Virus record (IMG/VR): IMGVR_UViG_2737471859_000001
Reading direction: 5' to 3' (one strand)
Source: a virus
Taxonomy: Duplodnaviria > Heunggongvirae > Uroviricota > Caudoviricetes
DNA length: 16,446 nucleotides
In this document: positions 325 to 16,446 of the stretch, piece after piece
Layout: the number at the start of each line of letters is the position of its first letter
Numbering within the stretch: the stretch's first letter is position 1
Translations under genes and position numbers: made by a program
Notes under the pieces: generated by a model
What the model saw: the letters and a program-made list of their open reading frames with translations, nothing else
Databases searched by the model: none
Told to the model about the DNA's origin: nothing

Positions 325-924
325 ATGCTTATTGGCTATGTCCGCGTATCAACAAATGACCAGAATACAGAATTGCAGCGTAACGCGCTGGAGTGCGCAG
401 GATGTGAACTGATTTTTGAAGATAAAATCAGCGGAACGAAATCAGCCAGACCGGGATTGAAAAAACTGCTCAGAACGCTATCAGAAGGAGATACGCTGGT
501 TGTCTGGAAGCTGGACAGACTGGGCAGAAGTATGAAACACCTGATCACGCTTATTGAGGAATTGCGGGAAAAAGGTGTTAATTTCCGTAGTCTGACGGAC
601 AGCATTGACACATCAACACCCATGGGGCGTTTCTTTTTTCACGTCATGGGAGCTTTAGCCGAAATGGAACGTGAATTAATTGTAGAGCGTACACTGGCCG
701 GGCTGGCAGCAGCACGCGCACAAGGACGCATTGGCGGACGTCGCCCGAAGTTGACAAAAGAACAACACGAGCAAATAGCGAGGCTGATTAAAAACGGTCA
801 TGACAGGAAACAACTGGCGATCATTTACGACATCGGCATATCGACGATTTATCGTTATCACCCTGTAGGCGATATACAGGCTGAAGAAACAACCAGGCAG
901 ACTCAGGAAAATGAAAACCGCTAA
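325..924 (+). CDS. Serine DNA invertase, Gin/Pin/Cin/Hin family
   Basis: 199-aa ORF starting MLIGYVRVSTNDQNT, with GDTLVVWKLDRLGRS and MGALAEMERELI motifs, near-collinear with Mu Gin as remembered. Confidence 0.93.
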   Translation: MLIGYVRVSTNDQNTELQRNALECAGCELIFEDKISGTKSARPGLKKLLRTLSEGDTLVVWKLDRLGRSMKHLITLIEELREKGVNFRSLTDSIDTSTPMGRFFFHVMGALAEMERELIVERTLAGLAAARAQGRIGGRRPKLTKEQHEQIARLIKNGHDRKQLAIIYDIGISTIYRYHPVGDIQAEETTRQTQENENR

Positions 925-6693: not shown

Positions 6694-7803
6694 ATGACCG
6701 ACACCACCATGCAATTGCTCAGTCAGGGCACAGACCCCGTGAAAATGCCGGATTTTGATATTCTCGCGGAGGGTAAAGCGCTGTCAGGCGTGGCAGAGCG
6801 CCTGATGAGCCTGTCACTGACCGACAACCGGGGATTTGAGGCGGACCAGCTCACCATCACGCTGGATGATGCGGATGGTCAGTTGCAGCTACCGCCACGG
6901 GGCGCGCGCCTGACGGTTCTCATTGGCTGGAAAGGAGAACCGCTGACAGAAAAAGGCACTTACATTGTTGATGAAATCGCTCACGAAGGACCGCCGGACA
7001 GGCTGACTGTTTCAGCCAGAAGCGCAGATTTTCGGGATGAATTTAACGTTAAACGTGAAGTATCCTGGCATGATGTGACCGTTGAGCGCGTGGTATCTGC
7101 CATCGCTCATCGGTATGGCCTGAAACCGCAAATCAGCGAAATGCTGATGGATATCGAAATCGACCACGCCGACCAGACCGAAGAAAGCGACATGTCCTTC
7201 CTTACGCGCATGGCGGAAATGTTGGGCGCAATCACCACAGTAAAAAGCGGTAATCTGTTATTCATCATGCCCGGTGGTGGCGTGAACGCGCAGGGCCAGC
7301 CGTTGCCCTCGTTTGCCATCACACGCAGCAGCGGCGATCGCCATCAGTTCCGCATTGCTGACCGCGAGGCGTATACGGGTGTACGCGCCTACTGGCTTGA
7401 TCTGAATTACGGGAAAAAGAAAAAAGTCAGCGTGAAACGCCGCAAACCGCCAAAACCCAAAAAGGAGAAAAGCAGCAGCCGTGAAGGTGATTATATGGAA
7501 GGCGCGGAAGGCAATGTGTTTGTGTTACGCAAGACTTATCAGAACGAGCAGGCAGCAAGACGCGCAGCGGCGGCAAAGTGGCAGCAGCTACAACGCGGAG
7601 CCGCATCATTCTCCATCATGCTGGCACGTGGACACGCAGAACTCTACCCCGAAATGCATGGCACGGTAACAGGATTTAAAAGCGAGATTGATAATCAGGA
7701 CTGGATTATTGCGAAAGCCGAGCACACCATTGATAACAGCGGCTTTACCACGCAGCTTGAGCTTGAGGCAAAAATCCCGGAATGGATAGCGGAAACAGAG
7801 TGA
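6694..7803 (+). CDS. P2 gpD-like late control / tail protein D
   Basis: ATG at 6694 preceded by agggaggg; the listed ORF start at 6562 is an in-frame upstream extension. Product (~369 aa) resembles gpD family and is followed by ogr as in P2. Confidence 0.8.
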   Translation: MTDTTMQLLSQGTDPVKMPDFDILAEGKALSGVAERLMSLSLTDNRGFEADQLTITLDDADGQLQLPPRGARLTVLIGWKGEPLTEKGTYIVDEIAHEGPPDRLTVSARSADFRDEFNVKREVSWHDVTVERVVSAIAHRYGLKPQISEMLMDIEIDHADQTEESDMSFLTRMAEMLGAITTVKSGNLLFIMPGGGVNAQGQPLPSFAITRSSGDRHQFRIADREAYTGVRAYWLDLNYGKKKKVSVKRRKPPKPKKEKSSSREGDYMEGAEGNVFVLRKTYQNEQAARRAAAAKWQQLQRGAASFSIMLARGHAELYPEMHGTVTGFKSEIDNQDWIIAKAEHTIDNSGFTTQLELEAKIPEWIAETE

Positions 7804-7845
7804 GGAACTTAGAATAGCGGCAGCACCACGTTAAGGGAGGTCGCT

Positions 7846-8106
7846 ATGTTCCGTTGTCCGCTTTGTGGCGCATCTGCCCGTATCCGCACCAGTCGCCCGG
7901 AAAATGATTCAAACACCGTGCGGCAAAAGTATTACCAGTGTAACAACCTGGAATGCGGCGTATGCTTCTCAACACTGGAAGCTTTCCATAAATTCACATC
8001 GAAACACGCCTCCGGCGTTCACTCATCAGAAGGTATCCCGTGGCATGATCTGCCAGCTTCACACAGGGGAAACAATCAGATGAGTTTGCCTTTACCTCAG
8101 AATTAA
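7846..8106 (+). CDS. ogr: Ogr/Delta-family zinc-finger late transcription activator
   Basis: MFRCPLCG...RTSR...YYQCNNLEC matches the P2 Ogr C4 zinc-finger pattern; aagggagg RBS; 86 aa versus 72 aa for P2 Ogr. Confidence 0.85.
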   Translation: MFRCPLCGASARIRTSRPENDSNTVRQKYYQCNNLECGVCFSTLEAFHKFTSKHASGVHSSEGIPWHDLPASHRGNNQMSLPLPQN

Positions 8107-8297
8107 CAGGCAGAATTGCCGGAGTAACAAAAAAGCGATAGATTACGCGCGGGTGCCTTTCGGCTGATGGTCGGAGGGAATACCCGAAGGCCAGATGTGG
8201 AAAGGCCCCGGAAAACATTTCTGTTTAACCGAGGCCCTAACATATCTACCTTAAGCAAGTGATAGGTTAGCGCCTCTCCAACAAAGGAGCAAGCGCT

Positions 8298-8438
8298 ATG
8301 TCGCAAAAATCGCTTACAGCCATCACATTCTGCGTGACGGTAATCCTCATCATCTGGATGCTGCACGGTTCGCTGTGCGAAATACGGATGAGCTTCTGGG
8401 GAGCGGAGTTTGCGGCGTTCTTACAGTGTAAGCAGTAA
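8298..8438 (+). CDS. Hok/Gef-family-like small membrane toxin (type I toxin candidate)
   Basis: 46-aa ORF MSQKSLTAITFCVTVILIIWMLHGSLCEIRMSFWGAEFAAFLQCKQ: one TM helix followed by the SLCE...E.AAFL.C pattern seen in HokA/HokB-like proteins; aaggag SD 8 nt upstream; GC hairpins downstream. Confidence 0.55.
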   Translation: MSQKSLTAITFCVTVILIIWMLHGSLCEIRMSFWGAEFAAFLQCKQ

Positions 8439-8573
8439 GGAAACCGCGACGGGGGAGCAATCCCCCGTCAATCGGTTGCCAGGGTATGGTCGAAGTGGCA
8501 CCCAAATTTAAATTGAGGCCCACCAGTAAGAGTGGTGGGCTTAACGCTTATTTAAATTTGAAAGGAACTCTTT

Positions 8574-8870
8574 ATGAGTGAAATGGTATTTTGTCGCGGA
8601 TGCGGCAAGGAAATACATAAAGATGCCACATCCTGCCCCAATTGTGGAGCACCTCAAAGAACAGCAAGTTCAAAAAGCAGAATGACAGCCGCACTACTGG
8701 CTTTCTTTTTAGGTGGTCTTGGTGCACACAAATTTTATTTAGGTAAAGTGGGGCAAGGATTCCTTTACCTTATTTTTTGCTGGACATTCATTCCGGCAAT
8801 CGTGGCATTTATTGAGTTTTTTATCTATCTATGCACCTCTGATGAAGACTTTGCCCGCAAATATGGCTAA
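8574..8870 (+). CDS. Zinc-ribbon + TM2-domain small membrane protein
   Basis: 98-aa ORF: N-terminal CxxC-x15-CxxC (CRGCGK...CPNCG), then two hydrophobic helices around an HKFYLG motif (TM2 signature DRFYLG); AT-rich relative to neighbours; followed by a clean intrinsic terminator. Confidence 0.75.
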   Translation: MSEMVFCRGCGKEIHKDATSCPNCGAPQRTASSKSRMTAALLAFFLGGLGAHKFYLGKVGQGFLYLIFCWTFIPAIVAFIEFFIYLCTSDEDFARKYG

Positions 8871-8896
8871 TGCCTAGTGGGCGAATCAGAATGACA

Positions 8897-8930
8897 AACC
8901 CGCAGCGTAAAAACTGCGGGTTTTCTTTTT
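8897..8930 (+). terminator. Rho-independent terminator after the TM2 gene
   Basis: aacccgcag-(loop)-ctgcgggtt followed by ttttcttttt. Confidence 0.65.
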
Positions 8931-8980
8931 GTCACCCTCACAAATGAGGGTAACACCACTCATAAGTAATAGGCATAACA

Positions 8981-9018
8981 GATCGATGCAATAAATCCGA
9001 TCGATAAAAACGATCGAT
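8981..9018. repeat. Three direct GATCGAT motifs (each with a GATC Dam site and an ATCGAT palindrome) in the com-like promoter region
   Basis: GATCGAT at 8981-8987, 8999-9005 and 9012-9018; a TATCAT -10-like hexamer at 9023-9028. Confidence 0.8.
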
Positions 9019-9062
9019 TTGTTATCATATCAGCAGCAGTAACCACACAAGAGGTGCCGCAA

Positions 9063-9260
9063 ATGACGCAAAATGTACGATGCAAAAATTGCAACAAACT
9101 ACTTGCCCGCGCCTCATTTCACTACATTGAAATAAAATGTCCGCGCTGCAAAACACTTAACAAGATAACGAGAGCCATCGAGCACCCCACACACATGAGG
9201 AGTTATGACCGTGGGGATCGCAATCCAGCACCAACCAGCACATACACCGGAACACACTAA
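9063..9260 (+). CDS. com: Mu Com-like zinc-finger protein (putative translational activator)
   Basis: MTQNVRCKNCNKLL..IEIKCPRCK..EHPT closely matches Mu Com as remembered; gagg SD 8 nt upstream of ATG 9063 (the ORF track starts at an upstream GTG, 9054); 3' end overlaps the methyltransferase ORF. Confidence 0.8.
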   Translation: MTQNVRCKNCNKLLARASFHYIEIKCPRCKTLNKITRAIEHPTHMRSYDRGDRNPAPTSTYTGTH

Positions 9261-10011
9261 GGTTTATCAGACTGACAATGCCACGCTCTGTCGTGGGAAT
9301 GCGCTGGAAATATTGCCGCTGATTGAGCCAGAAAGCATTGATGCCTTAATCACTGACCCACCTTACAGTTCGGGGGCGACACACAAGGCCGGACGCACCA
9401 ACCAGGGCAGCCATGCAAAATATCTGAACGGCGAGAACCTTCACCGCTTTGATGGGTTCGCGGGTGAAAACATGGACGCCCGTTCGTGGGCTTACTGGAC
9501 ACAATTATGGATGGCACAGGCACACCGCGCAGTCAGGCCGGGCGGTTATGCCCTGGTATTTACTGACTGGCGACAACTACCAGCTTTAACCGATGCGTTT
9601 CAGGCCAGTGGCTTTACATGGCGCGGCATCATTGCGTGGAACAAGGGGAGGGGGTCACGAACACCACATACCGGGTATTTCCGGCATCAGTGCGAATACA
9701 TTGTCTGGGGCAGCAAAGGCCATTTAGATAAATCGCCTTCGGGGCCGTTCGACGGCTGCATGACGTTCCCGGTTATCCCGTCAAAGAAAATGCACCCGAC
9801 CGGAAAACCAGAAGAACTAATGGCAGAGCTGGTCAGAACTGCGAATAGTGGCGGAACAGTCCTTGATCCTTTTATGGGGTCAGGAACAACGGGTGTGGCT
9901 GCACTGAAAGCAGGGCGAAAATTTATTGGTATAGAAACCAGTGATCATTATTTTGAGGTAGCAGCGCAGCGGCTTCGGGGGACTATTACCACAACCATTT
10001 CGACTACATAA
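9205..10011 (+). CDS. DNA methyltransferase, N6-adenine/N4-cytosine beta-class (DPPY ... FxGSGTT order); probably N6-adenine
   Basis: ITDPPYSSG (motif IV) precedes DPFMGSGTTGVAALKAGRKFIGIE (motif I), as in CcrM/PvuII-type enzymes. Start codon uncertain: ATG 9205 has a short SD spacing and overlaps com by 56 nt. No restriction endonuclease gene nearby. Confidence 0.85.
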   Translation: MTVGIAIQHQPAHTPEHTKVYQTDNATLCRGNALEILPLIEPESIDALITDPPYSSGATHKAGRTNQGSHAKYLNGENLHRFDGFAGENMDARSWAYWTQLWMAQAHRAVRPGGYALVFTDWRQLPALTDAFQASGFTWRGIIAWNKGRGSRTPHTGYFRHQCEYIVWGSKGHLDKSPSGPFDGCMTFPVIPSKKMHPTGKPEELMAELVRTANSGGTVLDPFMGSGTTGVAALKAGRKFIGIETSDHYFEVAAQRLRGTITTTISTT

Positions 10012-10113
10012 GACAAAGCCCGCATTTTTTGCGGGCTTGTCTATCCTTACTGATGTGGACAGTTTGTGGATGTTTATAAGAAATAAGCTAATAGAAACAA
10101 TCTGTTATCTTTA

Positions 10114-10137
10114 CAAAAAACGCGCCCGAAGGCGCGT
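10114..10137 (-). terminator. raiA rho-independent terminator
   Basis: Minus-strand hairpin acgcgcc-ttcg-ggcgcgt followed by TTTTTT, 25 nt downstream of the raiA stop. Confidence 0.7.
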
Positions 10138-10161
10138 TGGCGATACACTCAATATAAAGGA

Positions 10162-10557
<396 letters not shown>

Positions 10558-10726
10558 TCAAAATGTGTGATGGGAATCTCATAATTTTGTCACTTTTTGT
10601 CAACGAATCTTTTTTGTGAGAAATCGCAGGAAGAGGTGTTTTTTTACTTGAGGAATATCTCAAAGCGAGCCATATTTGATGAGATCGATAGTGACTAAAT
10701 CGCTTCAGTTTCACAACTAACAGAAT

Positions 10727-13354: not shown

Positions 13355-13416
13355 CCTAAAGAATCAAGACGATCCGGTACGCGTGATTTTCTTTTCACAT
13401 TAATCTGGTCAATAAC

Positions 13417-13445
13417 CTTGAATAATTGAGGGATGACCTCATTTA
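13417..13445 (+). promoter_or_regulatory. sigma-32 heat-shock promoter of clpB
   Basis: CTTGAA (13417-13422), 14-nt spacer, CCTCATTTA (13437-13445); matches the sigma-32 consensus CTTGAAA / CCCCATNT. Confidence 0.6.
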
Positions 13446-13483
13446 ATCTCCAGTAGCAACTTTGATCCGTTATGGGAGGAGTT

Positions 13484-16057
13484 ATGCGTCTGGATCGTCT
13501 TACTAATAAATTCCAGCTTGCTCTTGCCGATGCCCAATCACTTGCACTCGGGCACGACAACCAATTCATCGAACCACTTCATTTAATGAGCGCCCTGCTG
13601 AATCAGGAAGGGGGTTCGGTTAGTCCTTTATTAACATCCGCTGGCATAAATGCTGGCCAGTTGCGCACAGATATCAATCAGGCATTAAATCGTTTACCGC
13701 AGGTTGAAGGTACTGGTGGTGATGTCCAGCCATCACAGGATCTGGTGCGCGTTCTTAATCTTTGCGACAAGCTGGCGCAAAAACGTGGTGATAACTTTAT
13801 CTCGTCAGAACTGTTCGTTCTGGCGGCACTTGAGTCTCGCGGCACGCTGGCCGACATCCTGAAAGCAGCAGGGGCGACCACCGCCAACATTACTCAAGCG
13901 ATTGAACAAATGCGTGGAGGTGAAAGCGTGAACGATCAAGGTGCTGAAGACCAACGTCAGGCTTTGAAAAAATATACCATCGACCTTACCGAACGAGCCG
14001 AACAGGGCAAACTCGATCCGGTGATTGGTCGTGATGAAGAAATTCGCCGTACCATTCAGGTGCTGCAACGTCGTACTAAAAATAACCCGGTACTGATTGG
14101 TGAACCCGGCGTCGGTAAAACTGCCATCGTTGAAGGTCTGGCGCAGCGTATTATCAACGGCGAAGTGCCGGAAGGGTTGAAAGGCCGCCGGGTACTGGCG
14201 CTGGATATGGGCGCGCTGGTGGCTGGGGCGAAATATCGCGGTGAGTTTGAAGAACGTTTAAAAGGCGTGCTTAACGATCTTGCCAAACAGGAAGGCAACG
14301 TCATCCTGTTTATCGACGAATTACATACCATGGTCGGCGCGGGTAAAGCTGATGGTGCAATGGACGCCGGAAACATGCTGAAACCGGCGCTGGCGCGTGG
14401 TGAATTGCACTGTGTAGGTGCCACGACGCTTGACGAATATCGCCAGTACATCGAAAAAGATGCTGCGCTGGAACGTCGTTTCCAGAAAGTGTTTGTTGCC
14501 GAGCCTTCTGTTGAAGATACCATTGCGATTCTGCGTGGCCTGAAAGAACGTTACGAATTGCACCACCATGTGCAAATTACTGACCCGGCAATTGTTGCAG
14601 CGGCGACGTTGTCTCATCGCTACATTGCTGACCGTCAGCTGCCGGATAAAGCCATCGACCTGATCGATGAAGCAGCATCCAGCATTCGTATGCAGATTGA
14701 CTCAAAACCAGAAGAACTCGACCGACTCGATCGCCGTATCATCCAGCTCAAACTGGAACAACAGGCGTTAATGAAAGAGTCTGATGAAGCCAGTAAAAAA
14801 CGCCTGGATATGCTCAACGAAGAACTGAGCGACAAAGAACGTCAGTACTCCGAGTTAGAAGAAGAGTGGAAAGCAGAGAAGGCATCGCTTTCTGGTACGC
14901 AGACCATTAAAGCGGAACTGGAACAGGCGAAAATCGCTATTGAACAGGCTCGCCGTGTGGGGGACCTGGCGCGGATGTCTGAACTGCAATACGGCAAAAT
15001 CCCGGAACTGGAAAAGCAACTGGAAGCCGCAACGCAGCTCGAAGGCAAAACTATGCGTCTGTTGCGTAATAAAGTGACCGACGCCGAAATTGCTGAAGTG
15101 CTGGCGCGTTGGACGGGGATTCCGGTTTCTCGCATGATGGAAAGCGAGCGCGAAAAACTGCTGCGTATGGAACAAGAACTGCACCATCGCGTCATTGGTC
15201 AGAACGAAGCGGTTGATGCGGTATCTAACGCTATTCGTCGTAGCCGTGCGGGGCTGGCGGATCCAAATCGCCCGATTGGTTCATTCCTGTTTCTCGGCCC
15301 AACTGGTGTGGGGAAAACAGAGCTTTGTAAGGCGCTAGCGAACTTTATGTTTGATAGCGACGAGGCGATGGTCCGTATCGATATGTCCGAGTTTATGGAG
15401 AAACACTCGGTGTCTCGTTTGGTTGGTGCGCCTCCGGGATATGTCGGTTATGAAGAAGGTGGCTACCTGACCGAAGCGGTGCGTCGTCGTCCGTATTCCG
15501 TCATCCTGCTGGATGAAGTGGAAAAAGCGCATCCGGATGTCTTCAATATTCTGTTGCAGGTACTGGATGATGGGCGTCTGACTGACGGGCAGGGGAGAAC
15601 GGTCGACTTCCGTAATACGGTTGTCATTATGACCTCTAACCTCGGTTCCGATCTGATTCAGGAACGCTTCGGTGAACTGGATTATGCGCACATGAAAGAG
15701 CTGGTGCTCGGTGTGGTTAGCCATAACTTCCGTCCGGAATTCATTAACCGTATCGATGAAGTGGTGGTCTTCCATCCGCTGGGTGAACAGCACATTGCGT
15801 CGATTGCGCAGATTCAGTTGAAACGTCTGTACAAACGTCTGGAAGAACGTGGTTATGAAATCCACATTTCTGACGAGGCGCTGAAACTGCTGAGCGAGAA
15901 CGGTTACGATCCGGTCTATGGTGCACGTCCTCTGAAACGTGCAATTCAGCAGCAGATTGAAAACCCGCTGGCACAGCAAATACTGTCTGGTGAATTGGTT
16001 CCGGGTAAAGTGATTCGCCTGGAAGTTAATGAAGACCGGATTGTCGCCGTCCAGTAA
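13484..16057 (+). CDS. clpB: AAA+ disaggregase ClpB (Hsp100)
   Basis: Starts [10 protein letters not shown] after a gggaggag SD (the ORF track's 13472 ATG lies inside the SD); two Walker A boxes ([16 protein letters not shown]); internal GTG at 13928-13930 is the known ClpB80 start. Confidence 0.97.
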
Positions 16058-16089: not shown

Positions 16090-16172
16090 GTCTATAAGTT
16101 AGACGGAAAAGACTATATTTAAGATGTTTTGCCTGAAAAATGAGCGAACGATAAAGTTTTTATCTTTTTCGC

Positions 16173-16208
16173 TTGTCAGGCCGGAATAACTCCCTATAAT
16201 GCGCCACC
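16173..16208 (+). promoter_or_regulatory. rRNA operon promoter P1 (upstream AT-rich UP/Fis region from ~16,095)
   Basis: TTGTCA (16173-16178), 16-bp spacer, TATAAT (16195-16200), then GC-rich discriminator gcgccacc; identical in form to rrn P1 as remembered. Confidence 0.85.
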
Positions 16209-16289
16209 ACTGACACGGAACAACGGCAAACACGCCGCCGGGTCAGCGGGGTTCTCCTGAGAATCTCAACAGAGAAAAGTAAAAAATGC

Positions 16290-16317
16290 TTGACTCTGTA
16301 GCGGGAAAGCGTATTAT
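16290..16317 (+). promoter_or_regulatory. rRNA operon promoter P2
   Basis: TTGACT (16290-16295), 16-bp spacer, TATTAT (16312-16317). Confidence 0.8.
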
Positions 16318-16330
16318 GCACACCCCGCGC

Positions 16331-16367
16331 CGCTGAGAAAAAGCGAAGCGGCACTGCTCTTTAACAA
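16331..16367 (+). promoter_or_regulatory. rrn leader antitermination elements (boxB hairpin and boxA)
   Basis: gccgctgagaaaaagcgaagcggc hairpin, then boxA-like tgctctttaacaa (16355-16367); the window ends in the leader before 16S starts. Confidence 0.7.
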
Positions 16368-16446
16368 TTTATCAGACAATCTGTGTGGGCACTCGAAGAT
16401 ACGGATTCTTAACGTCGCAAGACGAAAAATGAATACCAAGTCTCAA

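Follow-up and report, generated by a model that had tools for sequence, protein, structure and literature searches.

Organisation of the accessory genes next to the att site of a P88-like prophage of the P2 family, and their Mu-type com control region

What occupies the 2 kb that separate ogr from the host chromosome at the end of this prophage, and do the genes found there belong together? The DNA analysed here (the window, 16,446 nucleotides) carries the right end of a P88-like prophage (Xuanwuvirus, P2 family) integrated in the raiA terminator. An earlier note, made from the letters alone, had described the interval as a prophage-end hotspot accumulating defence or counter-defence genes, and had left open whether a hok-like toxin, a TM2 protein and a com-methyltransferase pair act together. 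The interval is real, but what it holds is ordinary prophage cargo. We consider it probable that it forms the att-proximal accessory region of a P88-like prophage, built by nested insertions from three independent modules.

Limits and backbone of the interval

Pfam searches located the four cargo genes, as well as ogr and raiA, at the positions claimed for them (Table 1). The order is ogr stop (8106), hok, zinc-ribbon/TM2 gene, com, DNA methyltransferase and att core, confirming that about 2 kb of cargo with all of these genes lies between ogr and the host junction. Over 100 RefSeq genomes already have annotations for all genes of the block. The ogr gene, which encodes the late transcription activator, is the last core gene of the prophage. 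The interval 8107-10110 runs from the first base past its stop to about two bases short of host identity, prophage-free E. coli sequence matching the window from 10113 onward.

The att core found there is repeated, with 26/27 matches, at attL beside pheL in strain KOr024. The attL comparison was made with this strain in place of FDAARGOS_1059, in which no attL core repeat could be located and the end of the integrase gene is overlapped by that of an IS66-family transposase. The repeated ATGTGGA/TGTGGATG motifs of the attP arm were also found on the attL side in KOr024, and the annotated P arm of P2 reads GATGTGGTCAATGTGTGGA. This raiA-type attP arm is present in 123 genomes. The earlier note stated that in P2 the attachment site follows ogr directly; the attP core lies ~100 bp past the ogr stop in P2 versus 2007 bp here. 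The P2 order is ogr, terminator, P arm and core, and the cargo block is absent.

Table 1. Features of the right prophage end and the flanking host gene, in window coordinates.
Feature	Position	Strand	Evidence or description
ogr	7846..8106	+	Pfam Ogr_Delta 5.2e-14; same ORF annotated by PGAP in L001
Candidate hok promoter	8116..8144	+	TTGCCG, 17 nt, TAGATT; inferred, read from sequence
hok mRNA body	8151..8503	+	MFE -158 kcal/mol, z = -7.6; 5′ end pairs with 3′ end
hok toxin CDS, 46 aa	8298..8438	+	Pfam HOK_GEF PF01848, 3.7e-7, 30.1 bits (cut-off 22)
TM2 cassette	8504..8893	+	Insertion between hok fbi element and native terminator; GC 41%
Zinc-ribbon + TM2-domain membrane protein, 98 aa	8574..8870	+	Pfam TM2 5.5e-19, Zn_Ribbon_1 3e-5
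Intrinsic terminator T1, backbone	8896..8930	+	Terminator scan
Short backbone hairpin, GTCACCCTCA..TGAGGGTAAC	8931..8954	.	Folds at -12.3 kcal/mol
com regulatory region	8961..9062	+	Three GATCGAT sites (8981, 8999, 9012); com SD 9049-9056
com, zinc-ribbon translational activator, 65 aa	9063..9260 (start 9054/9063)	+	Pfam Zn_ribbon_Com PF10122, 1.2e-11, 44.4 bits
Candidate Com target GCCAUCGAGCA (with CC-N3-GAG), then translation-inhibiting hairpin	9174..9216	+	Folding and motif
Orphan beta-class N6-adenine/N4-cytosine DNA methyltransferase, 268 aa	9205..10011	+	Pfam N6_N4_Mtase 2.5e-33, 116 bits
Backbone hairpin/terminator T2, before att arm	10015..10038	.	Folds at -21.9 kcal/mol
attP arm, ATGTGGA/TGTGGATG repeats as candidate Int arm sites	10039..10112	.	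31% GC; motif positions
att core, 27 bp, ACAAAAAACGCGCCCGAAGGCGCGTTG	10113..10139	.	Is the raiA intrinsic terminator; terminator found on minus strand
raiA, host gene	10162..10503	-	Pfam Ribosomal_S30AE 7.5e-23; PGAP raiA in L001

The region can be read as a simple backbone of ogr, terminator T1, terminator T2, Int arm and core, to which the cargo would have been added by nested insertions. In cargo-free relatives, hok is followed by 19-23 nt, T1, the short hairpin, T2 and the arm. T1 is common to 621 E. coli genomes, lies directly 3′ of hok in L002, L003 and L005-L007, and ends the hok transcript in the cargo-free relatives. Variants of the 8931-8954 hairpin were found in L004 and L005, and phage Chuche and L007, a prophage without cargo, both carry the T2 element (ATAAGACAAAGCCC..GGGCTT) as well.

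The units do differ in base composition, as had been noticed, with GC contents of 54% for the hok locus, 41% for the TM2 cassette, 42% for the com region, 53% for the methyltransferase gene and 31% for the attP arm. The further claim that each unit has its own punctuation is partly true, but hok and TM2 share the terminator at 8896-8930, and TM2 has no upstream promoter in the sigma-70 consensus scan.

The hok and TM2 cassettes

The first module would be a hok/sok-type toxin cassette placed between the ogr stop and T1. Its product also matches PHROG 251 ('MokW-like host killing', 2.5e-23), while the NCBIfam HokA and Hok models match it only below their cut-offs; all NCBIfam matches for the block were in fact below cut-off. 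By folding, a 5′ tac element (8151-8164/8165) pairs with a 3′ fbi element (8489-8503), and this 5′-3′ pairing would hold the mRNA inert. Both elements are conserved in an Stx-phage homologue, with changes on the fbi side, and GGCACCC marks the precise end of the hok block in an Stx phage as well as in all P88-like prophages. The Rfam sok/hok-leader model (RF01794) matches the sense strand at 8151-8308 with 47.9 bits, short of its gathering score (59). Inside the block, the Rfam scan of the whole window gave only this sub-threshold match and a chance match to MicC (E = 0.93).

As for mok, no plus-strand ORF of at least 20 aa overlaps the hok start, and the sole ORF upstream of hok (8167-8262) stops 36 nt short of its ATG. 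On the minus strand, no consensus promoter and no convincing Sok promoter turned up, nor was the Sok RNA located. The candidate hok promoter was not flagged by the consensus promoter scan; both of its hexamers are kept in the Stx-phage homologue. The hok cassette (8116-8503) is fixed in the lineage and is not turning over, and ogr together with hok was found in 1179/5426 complete E. coli genomes. Because Stx lambdoid phages also carry the sequence from ~8130 to the fbi element (83-85% identity), we count the cassette as separately mobile. Addiction or abortive-type killing would be its likely role.

The second module appears to be a single TM2 gene that entered the 23-nt spacer separating the hok 3′ element from T1, a place where P88-like relatives have just 19-23 nt. 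The ~390-bp cassette brings its own leading hairpin (8517-8540, -18.1 kcal/mol) and a Shine-Dalgarno sequence (8561-8567), and the gene is probably transcribed in the lysogen by read-through from hok. It was found in 94 genomes. Homologues of the protein number 1552 and carry the name 'NINE protein' or 'zinc-ribbon and TM2 domain-containing protein'. The protein had no match in PADLOC, and a PDB sequence search returned only zinc-ribbon noise, with nothing bearing on function. Our best guess is an inner-membrane factor expressed in the lysogen, for example in superinfection exclusion.

Relatives of the TM2 gene are lone chromosomal genes or are carried by other phages, and one is located between ogr and attP in a P2-type prophage, with neither hok nor com-methyltransferase in the stretch examined. 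Other Enterobacterales chromosomes carry lone copies, including one next to ihfA, which P88-like phages use as an att site in E. coli. The idea that the lone Yersinia gene is a prophage relic was unsupported, only the host ihfA terminator being common with P88-like att regions.

The com-methylase cassette

The third module would be a com-methylase operon, inserted between T1 and T2 and following the control logic of the Mu mom operon. Com is 60% identical to Mu Com over 42 aa. Its gene overlaps the methyltransferase start by 56 nt, Mu com overlapping mom by 50 nt, and the com regulatory region aligns with Mu at the DNA level. The GATC sites are spaced 18/13, identical to those of the Mu mom region (660, 678, 691); given the 59 GATC sites in the window, the chance expectation for this spacing is roughly 1e-3. 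An extended -10 (TGTTATCAT, 9020-9028) upstream of com was the sole promoter-like site found by the scan in 7700-10700, and the GATC triad at this com promoter may be sensitive to OxyR and Dam. The Mu promoter stretch adjoining com is absent here in the alignment. We take this stretch to be the part on which the Mu activator C acts, and we know of no C in P2-like phages. The Ogr-type late-promoter element of P2 is TGT-N12-ACA; a search for it gave two matches, fewer than chance would give; one falls within the coding sequence of com, and none lies upstream of com.

A CC-N3-GAG element (CCAUCGAG) was mapped to 9175-9182, 5′ of a predicted hairpin (9185-9216, -15.8 kcal/mol) that encloses the Shine-Dalgarno sequence and AUG of the methyltransferase gene. 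The Mu hairpin at the same place holds the mom GUG. The motif recognised by Com is CC(N)2-3GAG (PMC6483171), and here Com would bind CC-N3-GAG beside the hairpin hiding the methylase start, turning methylase translation on. The hairpin has no covariation support because the com-methyltransferase copies are nearly identical (95-99%). At the junction of the more distant Smp131 cassette, no Mu-like start-sequestering hairpin was found. The Mu mom control cassette (GATC triad, Com and hairpin) seems to have reached a P2-family phage almost whole and with another enzyme attached, which suggests that the Mu-type control module is exchanged as a unit for toxic genes needed only late.

The methyltransferase has DPPY (aa 51-54) N-terminal to FMGSG (aa 223-227), the motif order of the beta class. 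Assignment to the Hia5 family was rejected on this motif order, that family being Dam-related (PMC3299994). The closest solved structure is a DpnA-type adenine methyltransferase (1e-20), and the protein is 53% identical to Bpm of Bordetella phage BPP-1 and 46% identical to the methyltransferase of the P2-like phage Smp131. The com-methyltransferase cassette was found in 172 genomes and in Chuche, the sole E. coli phage identified among the 40 of 221 phage records (E<=1e-20) listed for the methyltransferase. Phage 1720a-02, which carries an M.EcoGII-like gene, appears to be absent from these matches. A com gene followed by a methylase in place of mom is known from FluMu (Hin1523), Pnm1 (Nma1821), Hia5 and B3 (PMC3299994); com with a methylase is also known from the Burkholderia P2-like phage KS5 (PMC3091744), and Smp131 carries the pair as well.

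The methylase would be made only in lytic growth and would methylate progeny DNA, letting the phage escape restriction in its next host. Late and self-protective anti-restriction methylation is the likely role of the pair. What the sequences show directly are the gene identities, the module limits, the distributions and the resemblance of the control region to that of Mu in sequence and structure; the expression patterns, the methylase target and the phenotypes proposed for all three modules are inferred.

Cargo turnover, joint action and relation to known systems

Among ~17 right ends of related prophages, sampled rather than systematically counted across the 1179 genomes with ogr and hok, we observed at least seven states downstream of hok. 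These include an empty slot; small minus-strand ORFs; com-methyltransferase; TM2 with com-methyltransferase; an HEC-04 ATPase with a methyltransferase remnant; a two-gene module with com-methyltransferase; and a zinc-ribbon membrane protein with a VasI-domain protein. HEC-04 (PDLC04149, 1.8e-203) is found in one strain at the same raiA site, where it replaces com and the 5′ two-thirds of the methyltransferase gene. The com-methyltransferase pair occurs without TM2 in Chuche, Q5 and L023, and Chuche, a deposited phage genome, has the order ogr-hok-com-MTase-attP-int. All 123 genomes of the raiA-integrating lineage have a methylase or a methylase remnant next to the att arm. A one-genome-per-species scan with Ogr gave only 5 loci. 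In the sampled related prophages, gpD-ogr is the busier insertion point and carries the more varied cargo; in this window it holds none.

The proposed comparison across related prophages thus reveals a cargo turnover that is real but modest: the states differ between fixed flanks, but hok stays put and downstream occupancy is low. The idea of a hotspot for defence or counter-defence genes survives in part. The interval is variable and holds phage cargo absent from P2, but PADLOC (PADLOC-DB v2), one of the suggested checks, did not recognise any defence system there. No families were matched by Ogr, Hok, TM2 or Com, and the methylase matched only generic MTase_II and orphan-MTase models (MTase_II, 4.6e-63).

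Nothing suggests joint action of the three units, because their distributions and sources are separate. One cooperating defence island, in which hok and TM2 act as membrane abortive-infection effectors and the methylase marks self DNA, would fit the adjacency of hok, TM2 and com-methyltransferase on one strand and the presence of an adjoining com-methyltransferase in every sampled TM2 genome. The hok/sok locus of plasmid R1 has, moreover, been reported to exclude T4. However, the co-occurrence of TM2 and com-methyltransferase is explained by descent within the raiA-integrating lineage, and the overall distributions are nested, not coupled (1179 genomes with ogr and hok, 172 with com-methyltransferase, 94 with TM2). 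TM2 relatives stand alone on chromosomes, in other phages and in the P2-type prophage described above, com-methyltransferase occupies other hotspots in KS5 and Smp131, and no system was recognised by PADLOC, all of which makes cooperation quite improbable.

For the methylase itself, we regard it as unlikely that the enzyme is active in the lysogen, either in epigenetic or phase-variable regulation or in protecting the host chromosome, with the Dam/OxyR GATC triad as an ON/OFF switch like that of agn43 and no late anti-restriction role. The triad, with an OxyR-like half-site pattern, does overlap the -35 region of the sole promoter-like site found, and the cassette lies at the end of the prophage, a common place for lysogenic-conversion genes; but Com with a hairpin that sequesters the start codon is how Mu controls a toxic, late-only function, and prophage methylases of a comparable kind, M.EcoGII for one, stay silent in the lysogen. 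A restriction-modification system that lost its endonuclease could leave such a remnant, and the best PADLOC matches of the methylase are indeed Type II methyltransferase models. This origin is nonetheless highly improbable, as no endonuclease-sized ORF is present within 8107-10110, the same com-methyltransferase pair occurs without a nuclease in 172 genomes, Chuche, KS5 and Smp131, and control by Com is a phage arrangement.

Read as three independent modules, the locus is a clean worked example of morons stacking at a prophage end, each new gene landing just upstream of an existing terminator and one replacement leaving a truncated methylase. Both the hotspot and the com-methylase pairing are already published. 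The zinc-ribbon/TM2 protein, widespread and uncharacterised, is found repeatedly in the att-proximal slot of P2-family prophages; neither this recurrence nor the transfer of Mu control alters current understanding. A more far-reaching reading, doubtful though worth stating, is that the zinc-ribbon/TM2 ('NINE') protein is an unrecognised exclusion or defence factor, expressed in lysogens and repeatedly parked att-proximally by P2-family phages, and that a Mu-type Dam/OxyR plus Com switch may drive a broad-specificity methylase. Such a methylase, if true, would be of practical use.

Compared with known systems, the hok cassette resembles the hok/sok type I loci of plasmid R1 and Stx phages in its Hok/Gef toxin, its structured mRNA of ~355 nt and its tac/fbi closure; it differs from them in lacking an overlapping mok ORF and in a 3′ end changed by the TM2 insertion. 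The interval shares with the accessory hotspots of P2-like phages a variable gene set between conserved flanks and a candidate defence gene, HEC-04, as alternative cargo (PMC9122126; bioRxiv 10.1101/2024.10.15.618418; PMC13586616). Unlike the published hotspots, the hok-att slot is sparsely filled, and no defence system was called by PADLOC in this window.

The com cassette agrees with Mu com-mom in Com itself, the overlap of com with the next gene, the 18/13 GATC triad, the CC-N3-GAG element with a hairpin over Shine-Dalgarno sequence and start, and DNA-level alignment. It departs from Mu in its payload, a PF01555 beta-class SAM-dependent N6/N4 methyltransferase and not the Mom adenine-modification enzyme, in having no C-activated promoter stretch, and in its host element, a P2-family phage here versus a transposable phage for Mu. 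As in the cassettes of FluMu, Pnm1, Hia5, B3, KS5 and Smp131, com lies directly upstream of an orphan methyltransferase gene and overlaps it. The sites of these cassettes differ, KS5 carrying its pair at the Z/fun position of P2, between the genes for tail fibre and sheath, Smp131 beside the portal gene, and the prophage described here between ogr and att.

The prophage end and its junction with the host

On its left side the window carries the right end of a P2-family prophage, and the remainder is E. coli chromosome (raiA, bamD, rluD, yfiH, clpB). Among phage records, the nearest are those of Escherichia phage P88, further members of Xuanwuvirus, and phage Chuche. Genes for gpU, tape measure, gpE, tail tube and tail sheath were seen on the minus strand, and gpD, then ogr, then the block under study (8107-10110) on the plus strand. 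The match of prophage-free E. coli to the window begins at 10113, with none before this position. The raiA intrinsic terminator, a 27-bp sequence, is repeated beside pheL at the opposite prophage end in strain KOr024 (26/27 matches) and was therefore assigned as the att core. GC content changes by module (hok 54%, TM2 41%, com region 42%, methylase 53%, att arm 31%). The Pfam genes, host match, att core and GC steps thus bear out the earlier note, which had placed a hok-like toxin, a TM2 protein and a com-methylase pair between ogr and the host junction. That note also stated that the P2 attachment site directly follows ogr; indeed, the distance from ogr to the core is about 100 bp in P2, as compared with 2007 bp here. 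The block is a real, correctly placed accessory region whose modules are each of a known kind and mutually independent.

Features of the prophage end and flanking sequence (window coordinates unless a locus is named)
Feature	Position	Strand	Evidence or context
Serine DNA invertase	325-924		Resolvase + HTH_7, 6e-52; beside tail genes
gpD-ogr gap	7804-7845		42 bp
Ogr	7846-8106	+	Pfam
hok cassette			between ogr stop and T1
Hok	8298-8438	+	Pfam
TM2 cassette	8504-8893		fills short spacer between hok 3' element and T1
Zinc-ribbon and TM2 protein	8574-8870	+	Pfam
com-methylase cassette	8961-10011		between T1 with its hairpin and T2 (10015-10038)
Com	9063-9260	+	Pfam
N6_N4 DNA methyltransferase	9205-10011	+	Pfam
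att arm	10039-10112		ATGTGGA repeats
raiA terminator, att core	10113-10139
RyfD sRNA	13365-13503		Rfam RF02768, 125 bits, strong
861-aa ORF, probably clpB	13472-16057
Ysr197	16128-16377		Rfam, 84 bits, far under gathering score of 167
gpD-ogr cargo in related prophages	L006 3075-4214; L007 3686-4351; L012 188-3306; L013 900-3307; L014 1-3387; L024 5639-6799; L025 568-1590

The RyfD match, an ordinary host feature, lies 5' of the 861-aa ORF and slightly overlaps it. In the closest full prophage (L019, FDAARGOS_1059), tail-fibre assembly genes of opposed direction stand on either side of the invertase, an arrangement that suggests an invertible segment for the tail fibre. In this same prophage (intervals 1-2221 and 9213-10488) an IS66-family transposase gene overlaps the integrase gene end, a ParM and partition-protein gene pair is found just 3' of replication gene A and 5' of the portal gene, and an attL core copy was not found.

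The hok and TM2 modules

In the cargo-free relatives compared, U15A (at serS), E2348/69 and O104:H4 (both at ihfA), the hok mRNA end (GGCACCC) is followed by 19-23 nt, an intrinsic terminator (T1), a short hairpin, a second hairpin (T2), Int arm motifs and the core, an order that parallels the ogr, terminator, P arm and core of P2. Three modules, hok, TM2 and com-methylase, occupy this frame in the window.

The hok mRNA (8151-8503) folds at -158 kcal/mol (z = -7.6 against shuffles), with its 5' and 3' ends paired. Closure by the tac and fbi elements is a known trait of hok mRNAs, and the predicted pairing of the ends is this closure. The hok locus of Stx-converting phages is 83-85% identical over the stretch between about 8130 and the fbi element, with candidate promoter hexamers, tac and fbi all conserved; because it is shared with these phages, the hok cassette is a mobile unit of its own. 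At the hok locus no overlapping mok ORF was found, the Sok promoter could not be placed, and the Rfam match scored under threshold. The earlier note had listed hok with the cargo of a putative hotspot. Turnover does not extend to hok: ogr and hok occur together in 1179 of 5426 complete E. coli genomes, and hok is fixed, not variable, in this phage lineage.

The TM2 gene was found in 94 genomes, and every sampled copy was in a raiA-integrated prophage also carrying com-methylase. Because no sigma-70 promoter before TM2 came up in the consensus scan and the hairpin preceding it is without a good U-tract, transcription by read-through from hok would be plausible. The TM2 protein is one member of a large family in Enterobacterales (1552 matches, under the names 'NINE protein' and 'zinc-ribbon and TM2 domain-containing protein'), with no useful match in PADLOC or PDB. 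A 71%-identical relative lies directly 3' of ogr, between its terminator and the P arm, in a prophage having the Int arm and attP core sequence of P2 itself (L032 4878-5420; gene also in L030, L031 and L033); this looks like independent acquisition in the same slot. Lone chromosomal relatives were found in Yersinia (L035 5001-5297, by ihfA), Enterobacter (L038 4001-4297, between cpxP and fieF) and Serratia; in E. coli, ihfA is one of the loci at which P88-like phages attach. Common to the Enterobacter copy and the P2-type prophage cassette are a 29-nt element upstream, the terminator and a CCATTTAT(A/T)TCAATA element, a hint that this copy is the relic of a prophage end. One further relative is in a lambdoid Aeromonas prophage. 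Given relatives in several contexts, TM2 is therefore taken as an independent single-gene moron.

Cargo turnover downstream of hok and at the gpD-ogr joint

The turnover proposed for the block was borne out downstream of hok, where related prophages show varied states, and not for hok itself. The com-methylase cassette matched 184 genomes, 172 of them at a coverage of at least 80%; about 12 carry only part of it, and the three partial matches listed all comprise the methylase 3' end only. It is found at raiA, flk and ihfA (L024), and next to attP-int in phage Chuche. The raiA-type arm is present in 123 genomes, always adjoined by the methylase or its remnant. In strain ST69, the place of com and of the 5' two-thirds of the methylase gene is taken by a 489-aa AAA_15/AAA_21 ATPase matching PADLOC HEC-04 (1.8e-203). 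Exactly at the joint of this cargo and the truncated methylase (L004 7310-7337) stand 28 nt that are identical to hok 3' sequence (window 8454-8481) and look like a recombination scar. Other states hold small minus-strand ORFs, a 226-aa protein and a weak WapI-like protein 5' of com-methylase (L024), or a different zinc-ribbon membrane protein with a VasI-domain protein (L025). In ETEC4079 (L016 1-2800, at raiA), ogr is missing upstream of hok-TM2-com-methylase and is replaced by two hypothetical genes, one encoding a 565-aa protein with no PADLOC match.

The gpD-ogr joint, empty in the window, holds more varied cargo in the same prophage sample and is seemingly a second cargo site, busier than hok-att. 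Its contents include a SEC-C/YecA-like protein, GapS6a with a 930-aa protein, DUF3800 with IS5, IS3 with a group II intron, a weakly matching HEPN-like protein, and 221-aa and 386-aa proteins without assignment.

A Mu-type control region with a different payload

The com-methylase cassette is the best-explained part of the block. Its Com is 60% identical to that of Mu, and the com and methylase genes overlap by 56 nt, as compared with 50 nt for Mu com/mom. Three GATC sites upstream of com (8981, 8999 and 9012) have spacings of 18 and 13, exactly those upstream of the annotated Mu mom promoter (chance expectation about 1e-3, from the 59 GATC sites of the window). This region aligns with its Mu counterpart at the DNA level. 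The Mu promoter stretch adjoining com is missing here. Just 5' of the methylase start, CCAUCGAG agrees with the target motif reported for Com, CC(N)2-3GAG (PMC6483171), and is a candidate target. It is followed by a predicted hairpin (9185-9216, -15.8 kcal/mol) enclosing the methylase SD and AUG, as the Mu hairpin encloses the mom GUG.

The payload differs from that of Mu: it is an amino methyltransferase of the beta class, in which DPPY precedes FxGxG. Its nearest solved structure is a DpnA-type adenine methylase, and it is 53% identical to Bpm of Bordetella phage BPP-1 and 46% to the methylase of P2-like phage Smp131. Between raiA-type (268 aa) and Chuche/flk-type (263 aa) methylases, similarity breaks at 9974 and the last 12 or so codons (9975-10011) differ; the stop codon falls in backbone sequence ATAAGACAAAGCCC, present also in cargo-free prophages. 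Lysogens keep Mom and prophage methylases such as M.EcoGII silent, and forced expression of these enzymes is harmful; by this analogy the methylase is likely to act in late, tightly gated self-methylation that shields progeny DNA from restriction. A defence role for the block stays a proposal, and for the methylase counter-defence is the better of the two labels in the earlier note.

Hotspots of P2-like phages are well known from the literature (PMC9122126; PMC13586616), and replacement of mom by a methylase next to Com has been described in FluMu, Pnm1 and B3 (PMC3299994). The pair is also annotated at another hotspot in P2-like phage KS5 (PMC3091744), and similarly in Smp131. The new detail is modest: TM2 genes recur at P2-family prophage ends, TM2 is inserted within the hok 3' region, and the mom control region of Mu has moved near-intact into a P2-family phage.
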